Source of the DNA: Shigella phage Sf14
Sequence record: MF327003
Length of the DNA: 64,000 bases
Strand: one strand, 5' to 3'
Under the pieces are notes generated by a model. It was not told where the DNA came from and searched no databases. It saw only the letters and a program-made list of their open reading frames with translations. The translations under genes were made by a program, and so were the position numbers. Every line of letters begins with the position of its first letter. Position 1 is the first letter of the stretch. Shown piece by piece: positions 3,388 to 19,218 of this stretch.

Positions 3388-3785
3388 GACTCTTAAATAG
3401 ACACAGCTTTGTAGTTAAAAGAAAGGTATCTGAAGATGGTCATTACAATGAAGATGGTGATTGGGTAGCTTCACAGGATGTTGTATCAATTAACTGCAAA
3501 GGTAATATTCAACCTTATATTAAGGGTTCTGTAAAGAATGGTACACAGATTGTTTTACCTGAAGGTATCAGACTAACAGATACAAGAATCCTTTTCACTG
3601 TAGCTGAGTTAAGAACGTCTGATGATGTTGATTGGACTGAAGCTGATATTGTCATGATTAAGGGACACGAATACGAAGTCTTTATGACAATGGATTGGTC
3701 TGAACAATTAGCTCACACATCCCATTATGAGTATATCATTATTAGAAGGGATAAGATGAATGCAGTTAGAAACAGCAGAACTTGA
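3384..3785 (+). CDS. neck/tail completion protein (by synteny)
   Basis: 133 aa ORF, ATGA overlap with upstream gene. Confidence 0.3.
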   Translation: MRLLNRHSFVVKRKVSEDGHYNEDGDWVASQDVVSINCKGNIQPYIKGSVKNGTQIVLPEGIRLTDTRILFTVAELRTSDDVDWTEADIVMIKGHEYEVFMTMDWSEQLAHTSHYEYIIIRRDKMNAVRNSRT

Positions 3786-11886: not shown

Positions 11887-12302
11887 TGAAAACAGATTTT
11901 GCAATCAATCTTGGTGGTGACTACGTAGCTAAATTAGGAAATGATTCTGTATACGTTGCTCACGGAGATTTAAAAATTACGGGTAATCAGATTAGAATTA
12001 TCCCAGAAGACGATAAAGCTACTCAGGTAGCTCAAAGATTACATATTAGGTGTCTTCTAAGGGCTGGAGAAGTATTCTTTAATACATCTGCTGGATTCCC
12101 TTATTTACAGCTTGCTAAGTTCAAGCAGAAGACCTCTATTTTTGATAATTATATGAAAGGTTACCTTGTTGAAACGAGAGATGTAACAAACATCTACAAC
12201 TACTCTTCAACAATGGATAATGCAATGAGAAAAGTGTCAGTCAGATTTAATGCAACGACAACTGCTGACGATGTTGAAATTAATACAGAGGTAAACATTT
12301 AA
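11886..12302 (+). CDS. baseplate wedge protein candidate (gpW/gp25-like position)
   Basis: 138 aa, directly precedes J-like gene. Confidence 0.35.
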
Positions 12303-13771
12303 TGGCTGGATTAACAACTACAGGTTTACAAACAAAAAGATATCAAGAAATCTTGGATGATGTTAAAGCAAGTCTGTATAGAGATATCTCACCAAACCTT
12401 GATGTTTCTGAAGATAGCGAACTTGGGTTATTCTTAGCTTCTGTTTGCCGAGGTCTTGCAGACGTTCATGAAATCTTGTCAGAAATCTATGATGGTGGTA
12501 CTATTGACAAAGCTGAAGGATTCAGTTTAGATGATGTAACAGCTTTGAATGCTGTATACAGATATGTGGCACAAGCTACAAGAGGTCAAGCTGAGTTCAC
12601 TGGTAACTCTGGTGCTCCTGTACCAGCAACTACAAGATTAAGAAGCACAGCAGGTAACATCTTTTACCCTGTGTCAACTTTCACGCTGACTCCATCTTAC
12701 TGTGTAGAGGCAAACTTAGAAGTTAACTCTTTACGAACAGATGCAAACTATGTTATTATCATTGATAACATTGAGTATTCATATCAGCCGACTAGCTCTG
12801 ATACCATTACAACATTGCTACAGAAACTTGCAGATGCTATTAATGGTGGTATTATTGCAAAGGCTGAAGTTACTAATGATGGCTCAGTTCTAAGAATCTA
12901 TAAAGACACTGGAGATATCATTGCCAGAACTAACCCTATGGTTGTTACTGCAACGACATTCTTAACATTTACAAAGATTACTTCAATCAGTGACGTTGTA
13001 GCAGATGAAACTGGAGCTATCCAGACTCTGGCAGGAACCTTGATTGAGATTGAAACAACTGTAGATGGTCTTGATAGTGTCTTCAACAGATATGATTTGA
13101 CAACAGGTCGTGATGAGGAAACTGACACAGAACTGAGACAACGTTACTTAGAATCTCTGGCTGTTACCGGTGTAGGTACTCTGGATGCTATTGTAGCTGC
13201 TGTAAAGAGAGTTCAAGGTGTGTCTGACGCTTCTGGTGTAGAAAATGATACTGAGACAACAAACTCTGATGGTCTTCCTCCGAAGTCTTTTAAGATTGTT
13301 GTAGTTGGTGGTCAGAATGATAATATTGCACAGGCAATCTGGGACACGAAACCTGCTGGTATTCGCCCATATGGTGCAATCTTTGGGACTGCATATGACT
13401 TAGGCTCTCTCCCTCACGATGTTTACTTTAGTAGACCAATGCCTAAATACGTTTTTGTCAAGGTCACTTACTCTCTTTACGATGAAGAAACTCTTAACAT
13501 CCCTGAACAGGATATTCATGACAGAATTGTTCAAGGTATCAATACCTATGGTAGAACGTTGAAAGTTGGTAACGATGTAATCCCTAACAGAATTTATGGG
13601 CATATCTATGATGTGATTCAAGGTATTGAGATTAATGAGATTAAGGTTGCACTTTCAAACAACCAAGCAATTCCACCTGCTGATGAGCAGTACACCACTT
13701 CAAGAATTACTATTGATGGTGACCAGTACACTGTTTGGGAAAGCTCACAGTATACAATTACCAAGGAGTAA
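12302..13771 (+). CDS. baseplate J-like protein candidate
   Basis: 489 aa, largest baseplate ORF, synteny. Confidence 0.4.
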
Positions 13772-13773
13772 CA

Positions 13774-14631
13774 ATGTTTAAAAAGATTGAAAACTTTTAT
13801 GAGAAAACATTGGACGAAAGAACTGTAACTCAATTCAAAGATAAGTTTATTTACACAAGTCTATTGAAATCTATCACAGATGAGTTACAATTATTAGAGG
13901 ATATTAGTAATCAGTTATATACTGAAAGAAATATTCGTGTAGGTGTTGGCACACAACTTGATAACATCGGGGCTTTGATTAAAGTCCCTAGACCTATTGG
14001 TGCTGATGATGACATTTACAGAGCTACCCTCTACATTCAAATTTTCTTAAGACGTTCTGACACCACACCAAGCTTCTTACAAAAAGCTGTTATGACCCTT
14101 TACAACGCATCATTCAGTCAGATTTTTGAGCACATTACGCCAATGACTGGTGGAATTGTTATCCGTGTAAACACTCGTAATGACGTGTTAGATACAGCAT
14201 ACACACTTTCTAAGATTGCTGCAACAACTATTGGTTCAGCAGTTATCCTTAGAGATGTTACCTTAAATGGCACTGCTTGGACTCCTGTAGAGGTTGCTGA
14301 TTCATCTCTGGCAATCACTGATGAGAACAATAACTGGTTTGTAACAAACACTAACAAGGGTCTTATTACGAACAACACAGGTGGCTCTCTAGAAGCAAAT
14401 AAATTAGGTAGTTTTGCAGATGCAGGTGTAAGAGATGGTTATGTAAGAGTGGATAAAACTGGTGGAAGTACCAGTAAAGATTATTTAAAAGTCAGCAAAA
14501 CAAACAATAGCAACGACTATTTCATTGCTGGTAAAGAAACAGTAGCAGGTGGTGATTATGGGATTATGGCAGAAGTCGCCCAAATCGTCAAAGGCAGAAA
14601 AGATAAATCTCAACAAGAAGGAAGTTCATAA
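13774..14631 (+). CDS. baseplate/tail fibre-associated protein (gpI-like position)
   Basis: ATG at 13774 with AAGGAG RBS (track ORF begins at an upstream TTG at 13735). Confidence 0.35.
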
Positions 14632-14930
14632 TGTCTCTTTCATGGTCTACAGACACAGTTGATGCTGACGGTAACCAGCTTAAAGTTTTACCACCTCCAG
14701 AAATTCAAGCCACTGGCCTATTAAGGGGTGAACCTATGGGTCGTCAGTGGTTTAACTATATTATCAACTATTTGCTTAACAAAGTAAATGGTACGGTTGG
14801 AGAGGTTCGTTCATTTGCTACGGAGCAACCTGATTTAGTTTCCAATGGTTGGGAATTAATTGACACAGTAACAGGAACTGCACCCACTAGCACGACTAAC
14901 CTTTACACATACGAATATAAAGGGAGCTAA
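14631..14930 (+). CDS. small tail protein, unknown
   Basis: 99 aa, coupled between baseplate genes and tail fibre. Confidence 0.3.
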
Positions 14931-14932
14931 TA

Positions 14933-16108
14933 ATGCCAGTCGGTGAAATTCAAATTAGTGCATTGCCTCAAGCCTCATTGCCTATTGATTTAAGTGATAT
15001 CTTTCACCTTAAGCAAGGTATCGAGGATAAACGATGCACACTTGAGCAATTACTTGCTCCACACGCATCTTTAAGAAATAACCCACACGGTGTTACAAAG
15101 GTTCACGTAGAACTCGGTAATGTTGTTAACGCACTCCAATTAGTGGCTGCTAATAACTTGTCAGACGTGGTTAGTGTTGAAGAGGCTAGGCAGAACCTTA
15201 ATATTCTATCAAGTGATGAAGTTAATGCCCTTATTCAGAATCACATTAATGACAAGAATAACCCTCACAACACTAACAAGATTCAAGTAGGTTTGTCTAA
15301 TATTCAAAACTGGACATATTCAAACTCTTACTCTGAGGATGCTGATAAGTATGCTACTGCAAAAGCTGTGAATGCTTTATACAGGGCTATCCAGAATAGC
15401 TATCCAATCGGTACTATTCATTTGTCAGTTAACCCTGCAAACCCATCTACATATTTACTTTGTGGTGGTACTTGGGAGTTAGTTTCTAAAGGAAGGTCTC
15501 TTGTCGGTTATGACACAGATACAAGACCTGTAGAATCAGTATTTGGTTCTGCTACTGTAACACTTACACAAAATAACATTCCAAGTCACACACACTCTGT
15601 GTTGTTAACTGGTGGTGGACACTCCCACAATGCAACAGTAGTAATTTCTAGCTTTGACTATGGGACTAAGAGCACATCAAGTTTTGATTATGGCTCTAAG
15701 GCCACAAACGACTCTGGAAGCCACGCTCATAATGTTAATGGTTCTGTGAGTAGTGCTGGTAGTCACAGCCACAGGATTCCATTGAGGGGTTCTGACAGGG
15801 GTGGTGTGAACGCTATTACGGCAACGGCTGATGCAGGTGTTGGTAATGCGTCATATACAGACTTTGATGGGGTTCACACACATACCTTCAACGTTAACTC
15901 TTCAGTTGGTGGTAACCACTCTCACAGTGTGTATATCGGAGCACATGGACACAGTGTTGCAATTGGTTCACATGGACACTCAGGTACTGTGACAGTTCAA
16001 TCTTCTGAGCACACTCACTCAGGTACAACTGGTGCATTTGGTGCTGGACAAGCATTTAATATTGAGCAACCTTCTTATGTTGTATATGTTTGGAAGAGAA
16101 CTGCGTAA
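14933..16108 (+). CDS. tail fibre protein with NPH-type fibre repeats, collar-like domain and His-rich HxH C-terminal region
   Basis: Repeats NNPHGVTKVHVELGNVVNA / NNPHNTNKIQVGLSNIQNW; collar-like segment PIGTIHLSVNPANPSTYLLCGGTWE; many HxH triplets (HSH, HAH, HTH, HGH); ends VWKRTA. Confidence 0.6.
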   Translation: MPVGEIQISALPQASLPIDLSDIFHLKQGIEDKRCTLEQLLAPHASLRNNPHGVTKVHVELGNVVNALQLVAANNLSDVVSVEEARQNLNILSSDEVNALIQNHINDKNNPHNTNKIQVGLSNIQNWTYSNSYSEDADKYATAKAVNALYRAIQNSYPIGTIHLSVNPANPSTYLLCGGTWELVSKGRSLVGYDTDTRPVESVFGSATVTLTQNNIPSHTHSVLLTGGGHSHNATVVISSFDYGTKSTSSFDYGSKATNDSGSHAHNVNGSVSSAGSHSHRIPLRGSDRGGVNAITATADAGVGNASYTDFDGVHTHTFNVNSSVGGNHSHSVYIGAHGHSVAIGSHGHSGTVTVQSSEHTHSGTTGAFGAGQAFNIEQPSYVVYVWKRTA

Positions 16109-16119
16109 TTATTTTATAA

Positions 16120-16136
16120 GGGGCTACACAGCCCCT
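16120..16136 (+). other. GC hairpin GGGGCTACACAGCCCC between the two tail fibre genes (no T-run)
   Basis: Perfect 6-bp GC stem; same GGGGCT...AGCCCC arms as hairpins at 48213 and 53075. Confidence 0.4.
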
Positions 16137-16153
16137 AGAAAGAGGATTTATAA

Positions 16154-18532
16154 ATGGCTGAATATAAGCTAAGTGAGCTAAACAGTATTGATACAGTTCG
16201 CTCAGAAGATTTACTTCACCTAAGAATTATCAAAAGGTCTGATATGCTAGGTGATGAAGACCGTAAAATGACCTATGCAAATTTCCTTGCCTCTTTCAAA
16301 CTAGAAAGATTCTTACAACTAACTGGTGGGGATATGACAGGGAATCTTGGCATCGTCAAATTAAGATACGGTGGAAAAGACTTATTAGACCCAACAGGTT
16401 CTTCTGAGGTTATTCTCGGTGACACTGCCAAGACCTTTAGAATTAATGCAAGTGCTTTAAGATTAACTGTAAATGATGCCACAAGGTCTGCAACAGTTTA
16501 TCACACACTTAATAAACCATCTCCTAATGAATTAGGTATGAGAACTAATACTGAAAATGATGCAAGATACGCTATGAAGGAAACTGAAAATACCTTCTTG
16601 GCAAGACAAATCATTAATATCAACGGTGTTGGTTTGACACTTAAAAGTATCTTACCAGATGGTGGAGCATATATTGAAGCAAGAGACTCAAATAATGCTT
16701 TGAGATTCACAGTTGGTAACTTGACTTCTGGGACTGATGTTACATTAGTTAACAGCAAAGGTGCTACGTTGACTCTTGGTACAAACTCTGTTAGTGTTGA
16801 CAAGAACTTTGAAATCAATGGTCAGGTTCAGCCTAATAACTGGAACAACCTTGATGCAAGATTCTTTACACAGACTGCTGCTGACCAGAGATTTGCAAGA
16901 CTTAATGCAAGTAATAACTTTGTTGGGGTTAACAACTTCAACGGGAAGACTTATGTTATTGCAGATAGTAATGCACTTAACTTAAGAGCGGCTTCAGAGA
17001 ATGCTGCATTATTTATGCGTGGTTACAACAGTGCTGGGACAGGTGCTTGGTATGTGGGTCAACCAGATGGTACGCAGTCTGAGATTGTTTTAGCAAACCA
17101 GATGACAAATGTTAACTTGAAAATTGCTACAGAGTTTTCATTTAACAAAGCTATTAATGTAACTGGTCAGGTAAAACCAAGTGACTTCGCAAACTTTGAT
17201 ACAAGATATGTTCCAAGCTCTTTAACAAACGTGCTTGCAAGAACTAATGCTGCAAACGTTTTTACTAACCCACAAACTATTGTTACTACAGATGCGGCTT
17301 TCACATTGCAAAGTGGGACAGCTAATTCATCACTATATATTGTTGGTGCTAATGCAGATGGAAACAGACGTTGGTATGTTGGTAACGGTGAAGGTAGTAG
17401 ACCAAACTCTCTGTTCCTGTACAACTACTCAAGCGGTGGTGTACAGTTAGAAATTGCTGATACTTTCATGTTTAATAGAAGCGTATCAGTATCTGGTCAG
17501 GTTCAGCCTACAGATTGGACAAACTTTGACTCAAGATACTACACACAATCTGCTGCAAACTCAAGATATATGTTGTCTGGTGTATCTGGAACGGGAACCG
17601 AAGTCGGTGATGCAACAGGTATTGCTTGGAATGCAAAAACAGGTTTGTACAATGTTACCAACTCAACTGGTGGTTCGACTCACTTAGTTTACCAAATGTA
17701 CCTTGGAATTGGCGCATCCACACCTTCTGCACAGCTTAAATTTAACTATAAGAATGGTGGAATCCACTATAGAACAGCAAGGGATGCTTTTGGTTTTGAA
17801 GAGGCTTGGGCTAAAATCTACACAGACCAAGACAAACCTACACCTTCCGAGATTGGTACTTACACCAAGGCTGAAGTAGACCAACGTATTGCTTCTGCTG
17901 TAACTGATTCTACAGACCTTAAAAAAGTGTATCCAGTTGGTATTGTGACGTTCTTTGCTTCTAATGTCAACCCAAATACAGCTTTCCCAGGCACTACTTG
18001 GACTTACTTGACAGAAGGTGCAAACAGAACTATTAGAATCGGCTCTGCGAATGGCTCTGATGTGAAAGGTCTTGGGGGTGCTGATACGGTTGCATTAAGT
18101 GTTGGTCACATCCCTGCGCACACTCACGGATTCTCTGGAACGACTTCTTGGTTTGACTATGGTACTAAGTACACAGATGCTCAGGGTGCTCACGACCATG
18201 ACAGAGGTAACATGGAAATATCTGGGGTGTTCGGGTGGTTCAGAAGTGATAATGCTGCATTCTATACTGCAAGTGGTGCTTTTGCAATGGGTGGTAGTCA
18301 GGCTTCTCATGGTTTCACTGGTTCTAACTTCACATATGGTGCTCCAGTTGATTTCTATGCTTCCAGAACTTGGACGGGTAGAACAAGCTGGGTAGGTGCT
18401 CATGCTCACGGTGTAGGTATTGGTGGACACAACCACACATTTAGTGGTGATACTGGTGCAACTGGTTCTGGTGCAGCATTCAGTGTTCTTAACACTTACA
18501 TTAAATTAATGGCTTGGGTAAGAACTGCATAA
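16154..18532 (+). CDS. long tail fibre protein (paralog of upstream fibre)
   Basis: 792 aa; LTGGDMTGNL N-terminal fibre motif; three internal repeats of the form NxSVxxxGQVQPxxWxNxDxR(Y/F)xTQ(S/T)AA; collar-like VYPVGIVTFFASNVNPNTAFPGTTWT; HxH-rich C-terminus ending AWVRTA. Confidence 0.65.
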   Translation: MAEYKLSELNSIDTVRSEDLLHLRIIKRSDMLGDEDRKMTYANFLASFKLERFLQLTGGDMTGNLGIVKLRYGGKDLLDPTGSSEVILGDTAKTFRINASALRLTVNDATRSATVYHTLNKPSPNELGMRTNTENDARYAMKETENTFLARQIININGVGLTLKSILPDGGAYIEARDSNNALRFTVGNLTSGTDVTLVNSKGATLTLGTNSVSVDKNFEINGQVQPNNWNNLDARFFTQTAADQRFARLNASNNFVGVNNFNGKTYVIADSNALNLRAASENAALFMRGYNSAGTGAWYVGQPDGTQSEIVLANQMTNVNLKIATEFSFNKAINVTGQVKPSDFANFDTRYVPSSLTNVLARTNAANVFTNPQTIVTTDAAFTLQSGTANSSLYIVGANADGNRRWYVGNGEGSRPNSLFLYNYSSGGVQLEIADTFMFNRSVSVSGQVQPTDWTNFDSRYYTQSAANSRYMLSGVSGTGTEVGDATGIAWNAKTGLYNVTNSTGGSTHLVYQMYLGIGASTPSAQLKFNYKNGGIHYRTARDAFGFEEAWAKIYTDQDKPTPSEIGTYTKAEVDQRIASAVTDSTDLKKVYPVGIVTFFASNVNPNTAFPGTTWTYLTEGANRTIRIGSANGSDVKGLGGADTVALSVGHIPAHTHGFSGTTSWFDYGTKYTDAQGAHDHDRGNMEISGVFGWFRSDNAAFYTASGAFAMGGSQASHGFTGSNFTYGAPVDFYASRTWTGRTSWVGAHAHGVGIGGHNHTFSGDTGATGSGAAFSVLNTYIKLMAWVRTA

Positions 18533-18618: not shown

Positions 18619-18813
18619 ATGCCAACCATTCTAGCAATCCTCATGAAAAACCTTGGGGCATTCTTTTGGAAGCTTCTTTTTTCTCTTCTCAGTGAATACA
18701 TGATTGAAAAAGTGTTCTTTAAGCTTGCAAGATACCTTGCGAGTAAAACAGATACACCTATTGATGATGAATTTGTAGATACCTTGGAAAAGGCTTTTAA
18801 AGGTGAGAAATAA
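18619..18813 (+). CDS. small hydrophobic protein (holin-like candidate)
   Basis: 64 aa, hydrophobic N-terminal half, AAGGTGA RBS. Confidence 0.3.
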   Translation: MPTILAILMKNLGAFFWKLLFSLLSEYMIEKVFFKLARYLASKTDTPIDDEFVDTLEKAFKGEK

Positions 18814-19187
18814 TGAAGTGGCTTGAAGATGCTTTTAAGAATAATATTGGTGCAATCGTTGTAGGTATTTTCAGTGTAATTGGTATGTACACTACAATGC
18901 AGGTCTCTGATGGTAAACAGGAAGTGTCTATCACAAATAAGTTACAGCAGTTGGATGGTTACTCAAAAGGTAACTATTCAGCTATTCGTGACTTACAATC
19001 TGATATGAAGCTCCTACAATTAGGGATGGAGAACCAGAAAGTTCAGCTAGAGAATGTTAAGGGAGAAAACGCTAAGTTGACTAAGACCCTTGATAAGTTC
19101 TCTGACAGTGTTAACAACTTAGCACAATCTGTATCAGCTTTGCAAGCAATTACAGAACAAAATACCCAAAGCACTAAAAAGAAATAA
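18813..19187 (+). CDS. membrane-anchored coiled-coil protein
   Basis: 124 aa, one N-terminal TM segment (IGAIVVGIFSVIGMY) then coiled-coil; ATGA overlap with upstream gene. Confidence 0.3.
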   Translation: MKWLEDAFKNNIGAIVVGIFSVIGMYTTMQVSDGKQEVSITNKLQQLDGYSKGNYSAIRDLQSDMKLLQLGMENQKVQLENVKGENAKLTKTLDKFSDSVNNLAQSVSALQAITEQNTQSTKKK

Positions 19188-19192
19188 TTCTA

Positions 19193-19218
19193 AGGCTCCT
19201 TTTTACGGGAGCCTTTTT
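19193..19218. terminator. bidirectional intrinsic terminator between convergent transcription units
   Basis: AGGCTCC...GGGAGCCT stem flanked by A-run upstream and TTTTTGTTT downstream; sits between + strand gene end (19187) and - strand thymidylate synthase end (19223). Confidence 0.65.

Follow-up and report, generated by a model that had tools for sequence, protein, structure and literature searches.

Two adjacent genes, lying on the same strand of the window (the whole 64,000-nucleotide stretch of DNA that was analysed), very probably encode two side fibres of a Felix O1-like myovirus, gp59 being the short and gp60 the long one, with a tip of the T4 gp37 type at the end of each. Homology, motif positions, mosaic variation and the identity of both proteins with Sf14 gp52 and gp53 were observed here. 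The general architecture of such tips is already known from two papers of 2025, one on the identical Sf14 proteins (Subramanian et al., Commun Biol 2025, PMC11821841) and one on Escherichia phage Bas63 (Felixounavirus; Sci Adv 2025, PMC12609058), and the finding therefore introduces no novel type of system. The practical gain is in the residue-level limits that each fibre is given for its collar, needle, head and returning strand (Table 1), in predicted metal-site counts (nine for the short fibre, four for the long one), and in evidence for the long-fibre head as a rare, separately exchangeable cassette. Since tail-fibre tips decide which bacteria can be attacked, the result is relevant to Shigella phage therapy and to fibre engineering, where the boundaries and site counts can guide the cuts for head swaps and the choice of histidines to mutate.

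Identity of the fibre locus

The window was 100% identical to Shigella phage Sf16, and the short fibre was a 100% match to MF158043 gp59. Sf16 is classified within the species Mooglevirus Sf14; a literature search for 'Sf16' by name found nothing. Both open reading frames were found exactly where the first-pass annotation had placed them, as was every string it had quoted. The exact gp59 and gp60 sequences are both also deposited as Sf14 tail fibres: gp52 (391 aa) and gp53 (792 aa) have the same amino-acid sequences, with no protein difference. According to the available text of the Sf14 study (PMC11821841), these two proteins are long tail fibres, gp52 being the 430 Å and gp53 the 630 Å fibre of the cryo-EM map; gp53 is given a 'T4 gp37-like distal tip' and gp52 is described as C24-like plus gp10-C-like. 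In that same portion of the account, HxH motifs of the fibres are not listed and homology of the two tips is not stated.

The surrounding genes place the pair in the baseplate region. The upstream gene matched wedge 1 of the Bas63 baseplate structure (PDB 9NDY, E=2.5e-150), and gp58 matched chain S of the same structure, 'LTF platform protein (gp025)' (E=1.3e-54), which is T4 gp9-like in Bas63 (PMC12609058). The gene order wedge 2, wedge 1, LTF platform, STF, LTF is that of Bas63, in which the STF is gp26 and the LTF gp27. The Sf16 pair, which follows the genes for wedge 1 and the LTF platform, is orthologous to, and syntenic with, the Ounavirinae pairs Sf14 gp52/gp53 and Bas63 gp26/gp27, and the domain organisation of the Bas63 fibres is stated to be identical to that of Sf14 gp52/gp53 (PMC12609058). 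A programmed gp58-gp59 fusion was rejected, as gp58 is a separate, solved platform protein. Promoter, terminator and tandem-repeat scans inside both fibre genes gave nothing relevant.

Table 1. Features of the fibre locus (positions in the window; residue numbers refer to each protein)
Feature	Coordinates	Strand	Basis or remarks
Long-fibre platform protein gp58 (baseplate), 99 aa	14631..14930	+	Attachment point for long fibre
Short tail fibre, Sf16 gp59 = Sf14 gp52, 391 aa	14933..16108	+	ORF; phrog_2097 tail fibre, E=5e-131
Short-fibre collar, N-terminal part, aa 153-218 (YPIGTIHLSVNPANP...)	15389..15586	+	Pfam Gp10_C
Short-fibre ascending needle strand, aa 219-280	15587..15772	+	HxH 219, 230, 264, 278; two FDYG[TS]K repeats
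Short-fibre head, aa 281-314, presumed receptor-contacting turn	15773..15874	+	Matches T4 gp37 stretch HxH 929 to 966
Short-fibre descending needle strand, aa 315-362	15875..16018	+	HxH 315, 329, 338, 347, 360
Short-fibre C-terminal segment, aa 363-391 (...QPSYVVYVWKRTA)	16019..16105	+	Presumed return to collar
Long tail fibre, Sf16 gp60 = Sf14 gp53, 792 aa	16154..18532	+	ORF; phrog_4277, 1335 bits, full length
Three shaft repeats of ~110 aa, aa 131-250, 251-368, 369-476	16544..17581	+	Pfam gp37_trimer
Mu gpS-like domain, aa 477-588	17582..17917	+	Pfam PF12604 gp37_C, E=3e-20
Long-fibre collar, aa 589-655 (VYPVGIVTFFASNVNPNTAFPGTTWT...)	17918..18118	+	Aligned to gp59 collar
Long-fibre ascending strand, aa 656-684	18119..18205	+	HxH 656, 680; one FDYGTK repeat
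Long-fibre head cassette, aa 685-745 (RGNMEISGVFGWFRSDNAAFYTASGAFAMGG...FYASRTWTG), without HxH	18206..18388	+	
Long-fibre descending strand (HxH 750, 759) and C-terminal segment (...NTYIKLMAWVRTA)	18389..18529	+	

The two C-terminal modules and the T4 gp37 tip

The histidine-rich, metal-binding tip that recognises a receptor was first described in phage T4. Residues 146-363 of gp59 matched the solved tip of T4 gp37 (2XGF) with E=4.2e-25; the match of gp60 (631-768) was at E=1.1e-3, and gp60 was tied to the gp59 family by comparison of the two family profiles (hhalign probability 100%, E=3e-45, 201 columns). The modules, of about 200-240 residues, also aligned directly (gp59 153-391 with gp60 589-792, 27% identity, BLASTP E=3e-15). 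Their relatedness, proposed in the first-pass annotation, is thus far beyond chance, and the 2XGF matches and the HxH alignment uphold its core reading, in which a receptor-binding module of the T4 gp37 type, with HxH motifs, closes both fibres but bears a different head in each. The ends of the two proteins, VWKRTA and AWVRTA, which had been called nearly identical, have four of six residues in common; the preceding ~25 residues align too.

The 'dense run' of HxH motifs noted earlier describes the short fibre well and the long fibre much more poorly. In gp59, nine motifs take up 18 of the 19 histidines of the module, a count reached in none of 20000 shuffles. All seven iron-site motifs of T4 are kept and two are extra: motifs of the ascending strand align with T4 gp37 883, 915 and 929, and the descending strand has the 14-9-9 spacing of T4 966/980/989/998. 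Only four motifs are present in gp60 (a count reached in 8 of 20000 module shuffles), and these correspond to the four T4 sites nearest the collar, 656 and 680 aligning with 883 and 915 and the other two being the equivalents of 989 and 998. At the three head-proximal T4 positions (929, 966, 980) gp60 has no histidine, the head cassette taking their place. In both proteins the motifs, which had been assigned to receptor-binding tips, sit in the needle below the tip and not in the receptor-contacting head.

The likeness to the T4 tip, in which HxH motifs bind Fe (PMC12609058), covers the collar, the FDYGTK repeats, the seven HxH motifs with their spacing in gp59, and a hydrophobic C-terminal strand (…NYIVRLA in T4, …VYVWKRTA in gp59). 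The T4 collar is PF07484-like, whereas those of gp59 and gp60 score as Gp10_C. Moreover, the T4 fibre is built of four proteins, of which gp37 forms the distal quarter and requires the chaperone gp38, whereas here one protein makes the whole fibre; no chaperone homologue is reported for the Sf14 fibres in the available text of PMC11821841.

The gp59 collar matched Pfam PF21939 (Gp10_C) with 63.5 bits, above the curated gathering cut-off of 27, and aligned to the T4 gp10 C-terminal domain (2FKK, E=5e-7) as well as to the T4 gp37 collar. As profile positions 4-139 were matched across aa 155-390, the needle looks like a segment inserted into the fold of the collar. The Gp10_C match of gp60 was slightly under the cut-off of 27 (25.9 bits, E=2e-5), and homologues of its module carry a precomputed PF21939 match. 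The Gp10_C match and the alignment to the gp10 domain, together with the annotation of Moogle gp57 as 'baseplate wedge subunit and tail pin', would agree with gp59 being no fibre but a baseplate protein like T4 gp10, in the wedge or the tail pin. We find this scarcely credible and rejected it: the similarity is confined to the collar (gp59 aa 143-228, gp10 residues 440-521) with no whole-protein gp10 homology, the gp37 needle match is far stronger (E=4e-25), and the rest of gp59 matches fibre families. In addition, the identical Sf14 protein is assigned to the 430 Å fibre density in the available text of PMC11821841, and the Bas63 homologue is an STF with a receptor-binding tip (PMC12609058).

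By cryo-EM, both Bas63 fibres have a T4 gp37-like collar, an HxH needle and a head, and the chain doubles back (PMC12609058). In the arrangement that we propose for Sf16, fibre placement is taken from the literature, as is chain reversal in relatives, and we infer metal binding, trimer geometry and receptor identity. Each fibre would be a homotrimer whose N-terminus is anchored at the baseplate, with the gp58 platform as the attachment of the long one. In the tip, the chain would make the collar, contribute one outgoing strand to a trimeric needle of six strands, turn in a small head and run back, its last ~25 residues (…VWKRTA or …AWVRTA) rejoining the collar. Each HxH motif of the three chains would give six histidines to one metal ion on the needle axis (iron in T4), and these ions would rivet the needle together. 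Specificity would lie in the loops of the head, where the ascending HxH array has ended and the descending one has yet to begin. The short fibre would have up to nine putative sites, and the long fibre four near the collar, followed by a histidine-free aromatic head of a different class.

AF2 monomer models of both C-terminal modules had a mean pLDDT of ~66, with heads below 50, which makes them unfit for metal geometry; the collar and last strand were confident in both, with pLDDT ~90 in the gp60 collar. Foldseek of these models against the PDB gave no match at E<=1e-3, the weaker matches being T4 gp10, KP1 gp10, the A-1(L) fibre and C24. The hairpin topology was also examined from sequence alone: among 98 homologues, the lengths of the ascending and descending needle strands were correlated over all rows (rho 0.90), and this value fell to 0.33 (n.s.) on unique length pairs, because three main length classes (49/42, 62/48 and 68/52), in which both lengths increase together, dominate the set.

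Shaft and head cassette of the long fibre

The three internal shaft repeats that had been noticed in the longer fibre are real. Pfam PF20744 (gp37_trimer) matched three stretches of gp60 (E=3.9e-44, 149 bits, cut-off 21.7), and pairwise comparison of the repeats gave phmmer E values of 4e-22 to 1e-6 and z values of 4.9-27 in shuffled Smith-Waterman alignments; BLASTP of gp60 against itself listed no internal repeats. Each repeat ends GQV(Q/K)P..(W/F).N.D.R(Y/F). The domain that follows scored 72.5 bits with PF12604 (gathering cut-off 22.5), and its residues 477-582 are homologous to residues 327-429 of the phage Mu tail fibre S (gpS, PDB 8JU3, E=3e-21). In Mu this region precedes another C-terminal receptor-binding domain, one assembled by a chaperone, whereas in gp60 it precedes a gp37-type tip. 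Compared with Bas63, the Sf16 long fibre has three shaft repeats instead of five and carries a histidine-free head cassette, and HxH motifs number nine in the short and four in the long fibre, against seven in the STF and six in the LTF of Bas63.

The cassette forms an aromatic, histidine-free distal needle and head with the conserved motif HxHxRGxMxIxG…SGAF…FxASxTWxGxTS. It is rare, as only 28 clusters matched at E<=1e-3 among 1.84 billion representatives. Over 146 aa, gp60 was 57% identical to the Citrobacter freundii prophage fibre P0028 (BLASTP); within the cassette the identity was ~85% by eye, and the P0028 collar differs. A different collar type also precedes the cassette in P0199 and P0200. 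More generally, the collar in front of it was of the Gp10_C type in Mooglevirus and Felixounavirus, and of the T4/lambda-Stf type in Citrobacter and E. coli-like prophage fibres. The gp60 head was 82% identical to that of the Felixounavirus phage Tf, and only 21-25% identical to those of the Citrobacter Moogleviruses Moogle and Michonne. With the flanking HxH motifs the identity to Tf was 82-93%, compared with only 29-42% in the shaft. Among Moogleviruses it is the head that diverges, next to a conserved N-terminus, shaft, collar and C-terminal strand. The Sf16-type head is also present in 3HA14, isolated on E. coli, and in KMM2, isolated on Citrobacter, so that the link between head and host is loose.

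That the long-fibre tip of the Sf14/Sf16 lineage is a distinct, metal-poor gp37-type variant, in which the cassette, hydrophobic as well as aromatic, replaces the three head-proximal His6 sites and seems to travel as a module shorter than the whole tip, is a tentative proposal to which we give a little less than an even chance. If it is true, exchange of the head need not involve the base of the needle with its metal rivets, and the invariant M-x-I may take the place of an HxH layer.

Origin and use of the two tips

The two modules had been described as duplicated. They are homologous, and a recent duplication in this phage lineage followed by divergence would agree with the adjacency of the genes on one strand, with the Gp10_C-type collar and ...W.RTA ending of both, and with the presence of both modules, in two places per record, in all Ounavirinae records examined. 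However, the modules are only 27-31% identical, and both have closer relatives among the fibres of other phages and prophages: identity is 40-57% between the gp60 module and prophage fibres of Erwinia, Photorhabdus, Pantoea and Citrobacter, and ~50% between the gp59 needle and T4 gp37 as well as side fibres of E. coli prophages. These identity values suggest that, in Ounavirinae, the gp59-type and the gp60-type module are not mutual closest relatives, and the gp60 cassette stands behind another collar type in the three cases named above. We consider a recent in-genome duplication improbable and rejected it; the low mutual identity, the closer outside relatives and the presence of the cassette behind other collars indicate that both are old members of one family, which horizontal exchange has reshuffled.

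The central head segments of the gp59 and gp60 modules did not align to each other, and heads are the most variable part among relatives; in gp59, no segment differs more between Moogleviruses than the head (24-29% identity, compared with 83-95% in the N-terminus, shaft and collar). These observations fit the earlier suggestion that the two modules differ in specificity. As the heads are unrelated in sequence, the two tips most likely bind different structures. LPS is reported as the receptor of Ounavirinae (the available text of PMC11821841, among others), and the structures bound are probably parts of the LPS core.

By analogy with T4, the two fibres might instead act sequentially on one host, the long fibre binding reversibly and then the short one irreversibly, and would not be alternative determinants of host range. 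In its favour, a single virion carries both fibres, each of them retracted along the sheath (PMC12609058 and the available text of PMC11821841), Ounavirinae depend on the LPS core, and from the Sf16 group to the Moogle/Michonne group the two heads change jointly; nevertheless, both are long fibres at the baseplate periphery, unlike T4 gp12. We regard sequential action as possible, with the balance somewhat against it. It is compatible with the structural explanation of two gp37-type tips and differs from it only in the use made of the two specificities.

Genomic setting of the two fibre genes

The 4-kb fibre stretch is 100% identical to that of Shigella phage Sf16 (MF158043; Ounavirinae, Mooglevirus, species Mooglevirus Sf14), whose protein numbering is used here, and an exact-sequence look-up showed that gp59 and gp60 are also deposited as phage Sf14 tail fibre proteins. 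The two ORFs adjoin each other on the plus strand.

Features of the fibre region and its neighbours (window coordinates)
Feature	Position	Strand	Remarks
Baseplate_J-type wedge protein	12302-13771		upstream of the fibres
Wedge protein 1 (Bas63 gp024)	13774-14631	+	PDB 9NDY, E=2.5e-150
Long-fibre platform protein (Bas63 gp025)	14631-14930	+	99 aa; 9NDY chain S, E=1.3e-54; directly upstream of the short fibre
Short-fibre gene gp59	14933..16108	+	ORF, 391 aa; Sf16 label 'putative tail protein'
Long-fibre gene gp60	16154..18532	+	ORF, 792 aa; Sf16 label 'tail fiber protein'
Region downstream of the long fibre	18619-19215		hydrophobic protein, holin, terminator
Hydrophobic protein	downstream of gp60		64 aa; phrog_402, unknown function
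Annotated holin	downstream of gp60		124 aa; hydrophobic N-terminal segment, then long polar tail
Bidirectional terminator	19192-19215		perfect hairpin; faces convergent thymidylate synthase and DHFR genes

For wedge protein 1, the mechanical ORF list gave a TTG start at 13735, running into the preceding gene; the ATG at 13774 agrees with the deposited annotation and with the PDB chain (285 aa). The platform counterpart, gp51, is entered in the Sf14 protein table as 'Homolog of T4 gp11?', with 'No' in the last column (PMC11821841), a label that looks superseded. No tail-fibre chaperone-like gene adjoins either fibre gene, and no tRNA genes were found across window positions 1-64000. The terminator hairpin is common to the fibre side and the convergent thymidylate synthase gene. 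GC skew is negative at about 20 to 28 kb and positive elsewhere in the window; the negative stretch spans minus-strand genes from 19223 (td, frd and neighbours).

Related C-terminal modules with different HxH needles

Residues 153-391 of gp59 and 589-792 of gp60 aligned at 27% identity (E=3e-15), and comparison of their family profiles (38 and 45 homologues) gave an hhalign probability of 100% (E=3e-45, 201 columns), which confirms the proposal of the first-pass annotation that both fibres carry related C-terminal modules. The T4 gp37 receptor-binding tip crystal structure (2XGF) was matched by gp59 146-363 (E=4e-25) and by gp60 631-768 (E=1e-3); the gp59 collar additionally matched the T4 gp10 C-terminal domain, and gp60 477-582 matched the phage Mu fibre gpS (8JU3, E=3e-21). 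With Pfam Gp10_C, gp59 scored 63.5 bits, above the cut-off of 27, and gp60 25.9 bits, just short of it. Pfam also reported gp37_C and three gp37_trimer stretches (E=3.9e-44) in gp60; these agree with pairwise phmmer comparisons (E=4e-22 to 1e-6) on the three internal shaft repeats previously noted (about 131-250, 251-368 and 369-476). For each module, the monomer structure prediction averaged about 66 in pLDDT: collars and terminal strands were predicted with confidence, but heads scored below 50. Foldseek searches of both models against the PDB gave no match at E<=1e-3.

The C-terminal ending shared by the two fibres (gp59 …YVVYVWKRTA, gp60 …IKLMAWVRTA; T4 gp37 …NYIVRLA) is matched by the very end of the Gp10_C profile. 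Because of this match the needle looks like an insertion within the collar fold, in agreement with the published chain reversal at the head and return to the collar (Bas63 paper, PMC12609058).

Prophage fibres of Erwinia, Photorhabdus, Pantoea and Citrobacter share 40-57% identity with the gp60 module; for the gp59 needle, identity to T4 gp37 and to side fibres of E. coli prophages is about 50%. Each module is thus closer to fibres elsewhere than to its partner (27-31%), which makes a recent duplication in this genome unlikely; judged from their sequences, both modules belong, as old members, to a single widespread family.

Nine HxH motifs were found in gp59, at 219, 230, 264 and 278 (ascending strand) and at 315, 329, 338, 347 and 360 (descending strand); they account for 18 of the module's 19 histidines, and none of 20000 shuffles reached nine. 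Only four occur in gp60 (656 and 680 ascending, 750 and 759 descending), a count equalled or exceeded in 8 of 20000 shuffles of that module. The description 'dense run', previously applied to the HxH motifs of both fibres, therefore holds for the short fibre and not for the long one. In a three-way alignment with T4 gp37 785-1026, all seven T4 motifs (883, 915, 929 and 966, 980, 989, 998), which are stated to bind iron (PMC12609058), are faced by gp59 motifs, with the same 14-9-9 spacing on the returning strand, and gp59 has one more HxH at each collar-proximal end. gp60 retains just four collar-proximal sites (T4 equivalents 883, 915, 989 and 998); between them, residues 685-745 are devoid of HxH, aromatic-rich and of about the T4 length.

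Citrobacter-type short fibres (Moogle, Michonne, HP1 and Henu12) have one ascending HxH fewer, two more FD(Y/H)G.K repeats and one more descending HxH(S/T)V.IG unit, and still nine HxH in total (3+6 versus 4+5). On both strands, the short-fibre needle seems to grow in steps of whole repeat units.

Proposed fibre organization and published structures

In the best-supported model, both proteins form homotrimeric fibres anchored by their N-termini, each ending in a collar, a six-stranded needle and a head. Axial His6-metal sites, up to nine in gp59 and four in gp60, would rivet the needle; head loops would contact the receptor, and the two unrelated heads would confer two specificities, both probably for parts of LPS. 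For gp59 and gp60, metal binding, the geometry of the trimer and the receptors are what we infer here; homology, motif register and mosaic pattern come from this analysis, fibre placement and chain reversal from the literature.

In the 2025 Sf14 cryo-EM paper, gp52 (391 aa) and gp53 (792 aa), the counterparts of gp59 and gp60, are assigned to two long-fibre sets of 430 and 630 Å; gp52 is described as having a gp10-C-like and a C24-like region and gp53 a 'T4 gp37-like distal tip', and the authors suggest that each fibre may recognise a receptor of its own, probably LPS core (PMC11821841). The 2025 Bas63 paper places a T4 gp37-like tip (collar, HxH needle, head) on both STF and LTF, counts seven and six HxH, respectively, and calls their domain organization identical to that of Sf14 gp52/gp53 (PMC12609058). 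T4-type receptor-binding tips on both fibres, as first proposed, are thus upheld by the 2XGF matches, the HxH register with T4 and these published fibres. The feature is real and was accurately described; in view of the two papers, its interpretation is correct but already known for these proteins and close relatives. The increment is limited to the residue-level map, the nine-versus-four site count and the rare, apparently exchangeable long-fibre head cassette.

Apparent head exchange among related phages

For seven Moogleviruses and two Felixounaviruses, identities were compared segment by segment. Conservation among relatives covers N-termini, shafts, collars and C-terminal strands: in Moogle and Michonne, the short-fibre N-terminus, shaft and collar are 83-95% and the long-fibre N-terminus 85% identical to Sf16, whereas heads are only 24-29% (short fibre) and 21-25% (long fibre) identical. 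The reverse pattern was observed in the Felixounavirus 'Shigella phage Tf', whose long-fibre shaft is just 29-42% identical to Sf16 gp60, while the ascending HxH strand (93%), head (82%) and descending HxH strand (89%) are close to it; NBEco004 has the same head. Because the Tf shaft is divergent and its head and HxH flanks are near those of Sf16, the long-fibre head with its flanking needle appears, from these alignments, to have moved between genera.

A search with gp60 676-750 against 1.84 billion representatives returned 28 clusters at E<=1e-3, four of them at E<=1e-10, with the common motif HxHxRGxMxIxG…SGAF…FxASxTWxGxTS. In some of the matching fibres (P0028, from a Citrobacter freundii prophage, P0199 and P0200), the gp60-type head is joined to a T4/lambda-Stf-type collar and …NYIVRLA ending; P0028 is 57% identical to gp60 over 146 aa. 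By its distribution, the long-fibre head cassette is rare and appears to be separately exchangeable. The Sf16-type head was found in phages from Shigella, E. coli (3HA14) and Citrobacter (KMM2), and this spread of one head across isolates from three hosts limits the link between head and host.

The long fibre of ESh19 is mostly 97-100% identical to Sf16 and 49% identical in shaft repeat 3; the divergent patch (window 17280-17494, gp60 aa about 377-447) is a short recombinant patch within the repeat region, away from the tip. In Citrobacter phage BSwM KMM2, the annotation splits the long-fibre gene into two CDS because of two close frame changes in the collar (about 3540-3600 of locus L011), whose sequence can be read in another frame. 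The long-fibre region of vB_SflM_004 is divided into four CDS, and its short-fibre CDS is cut short at 331 aa. The broken fibre CDS of these two phages probably reflect errors of sequencing or assembly, not biology.
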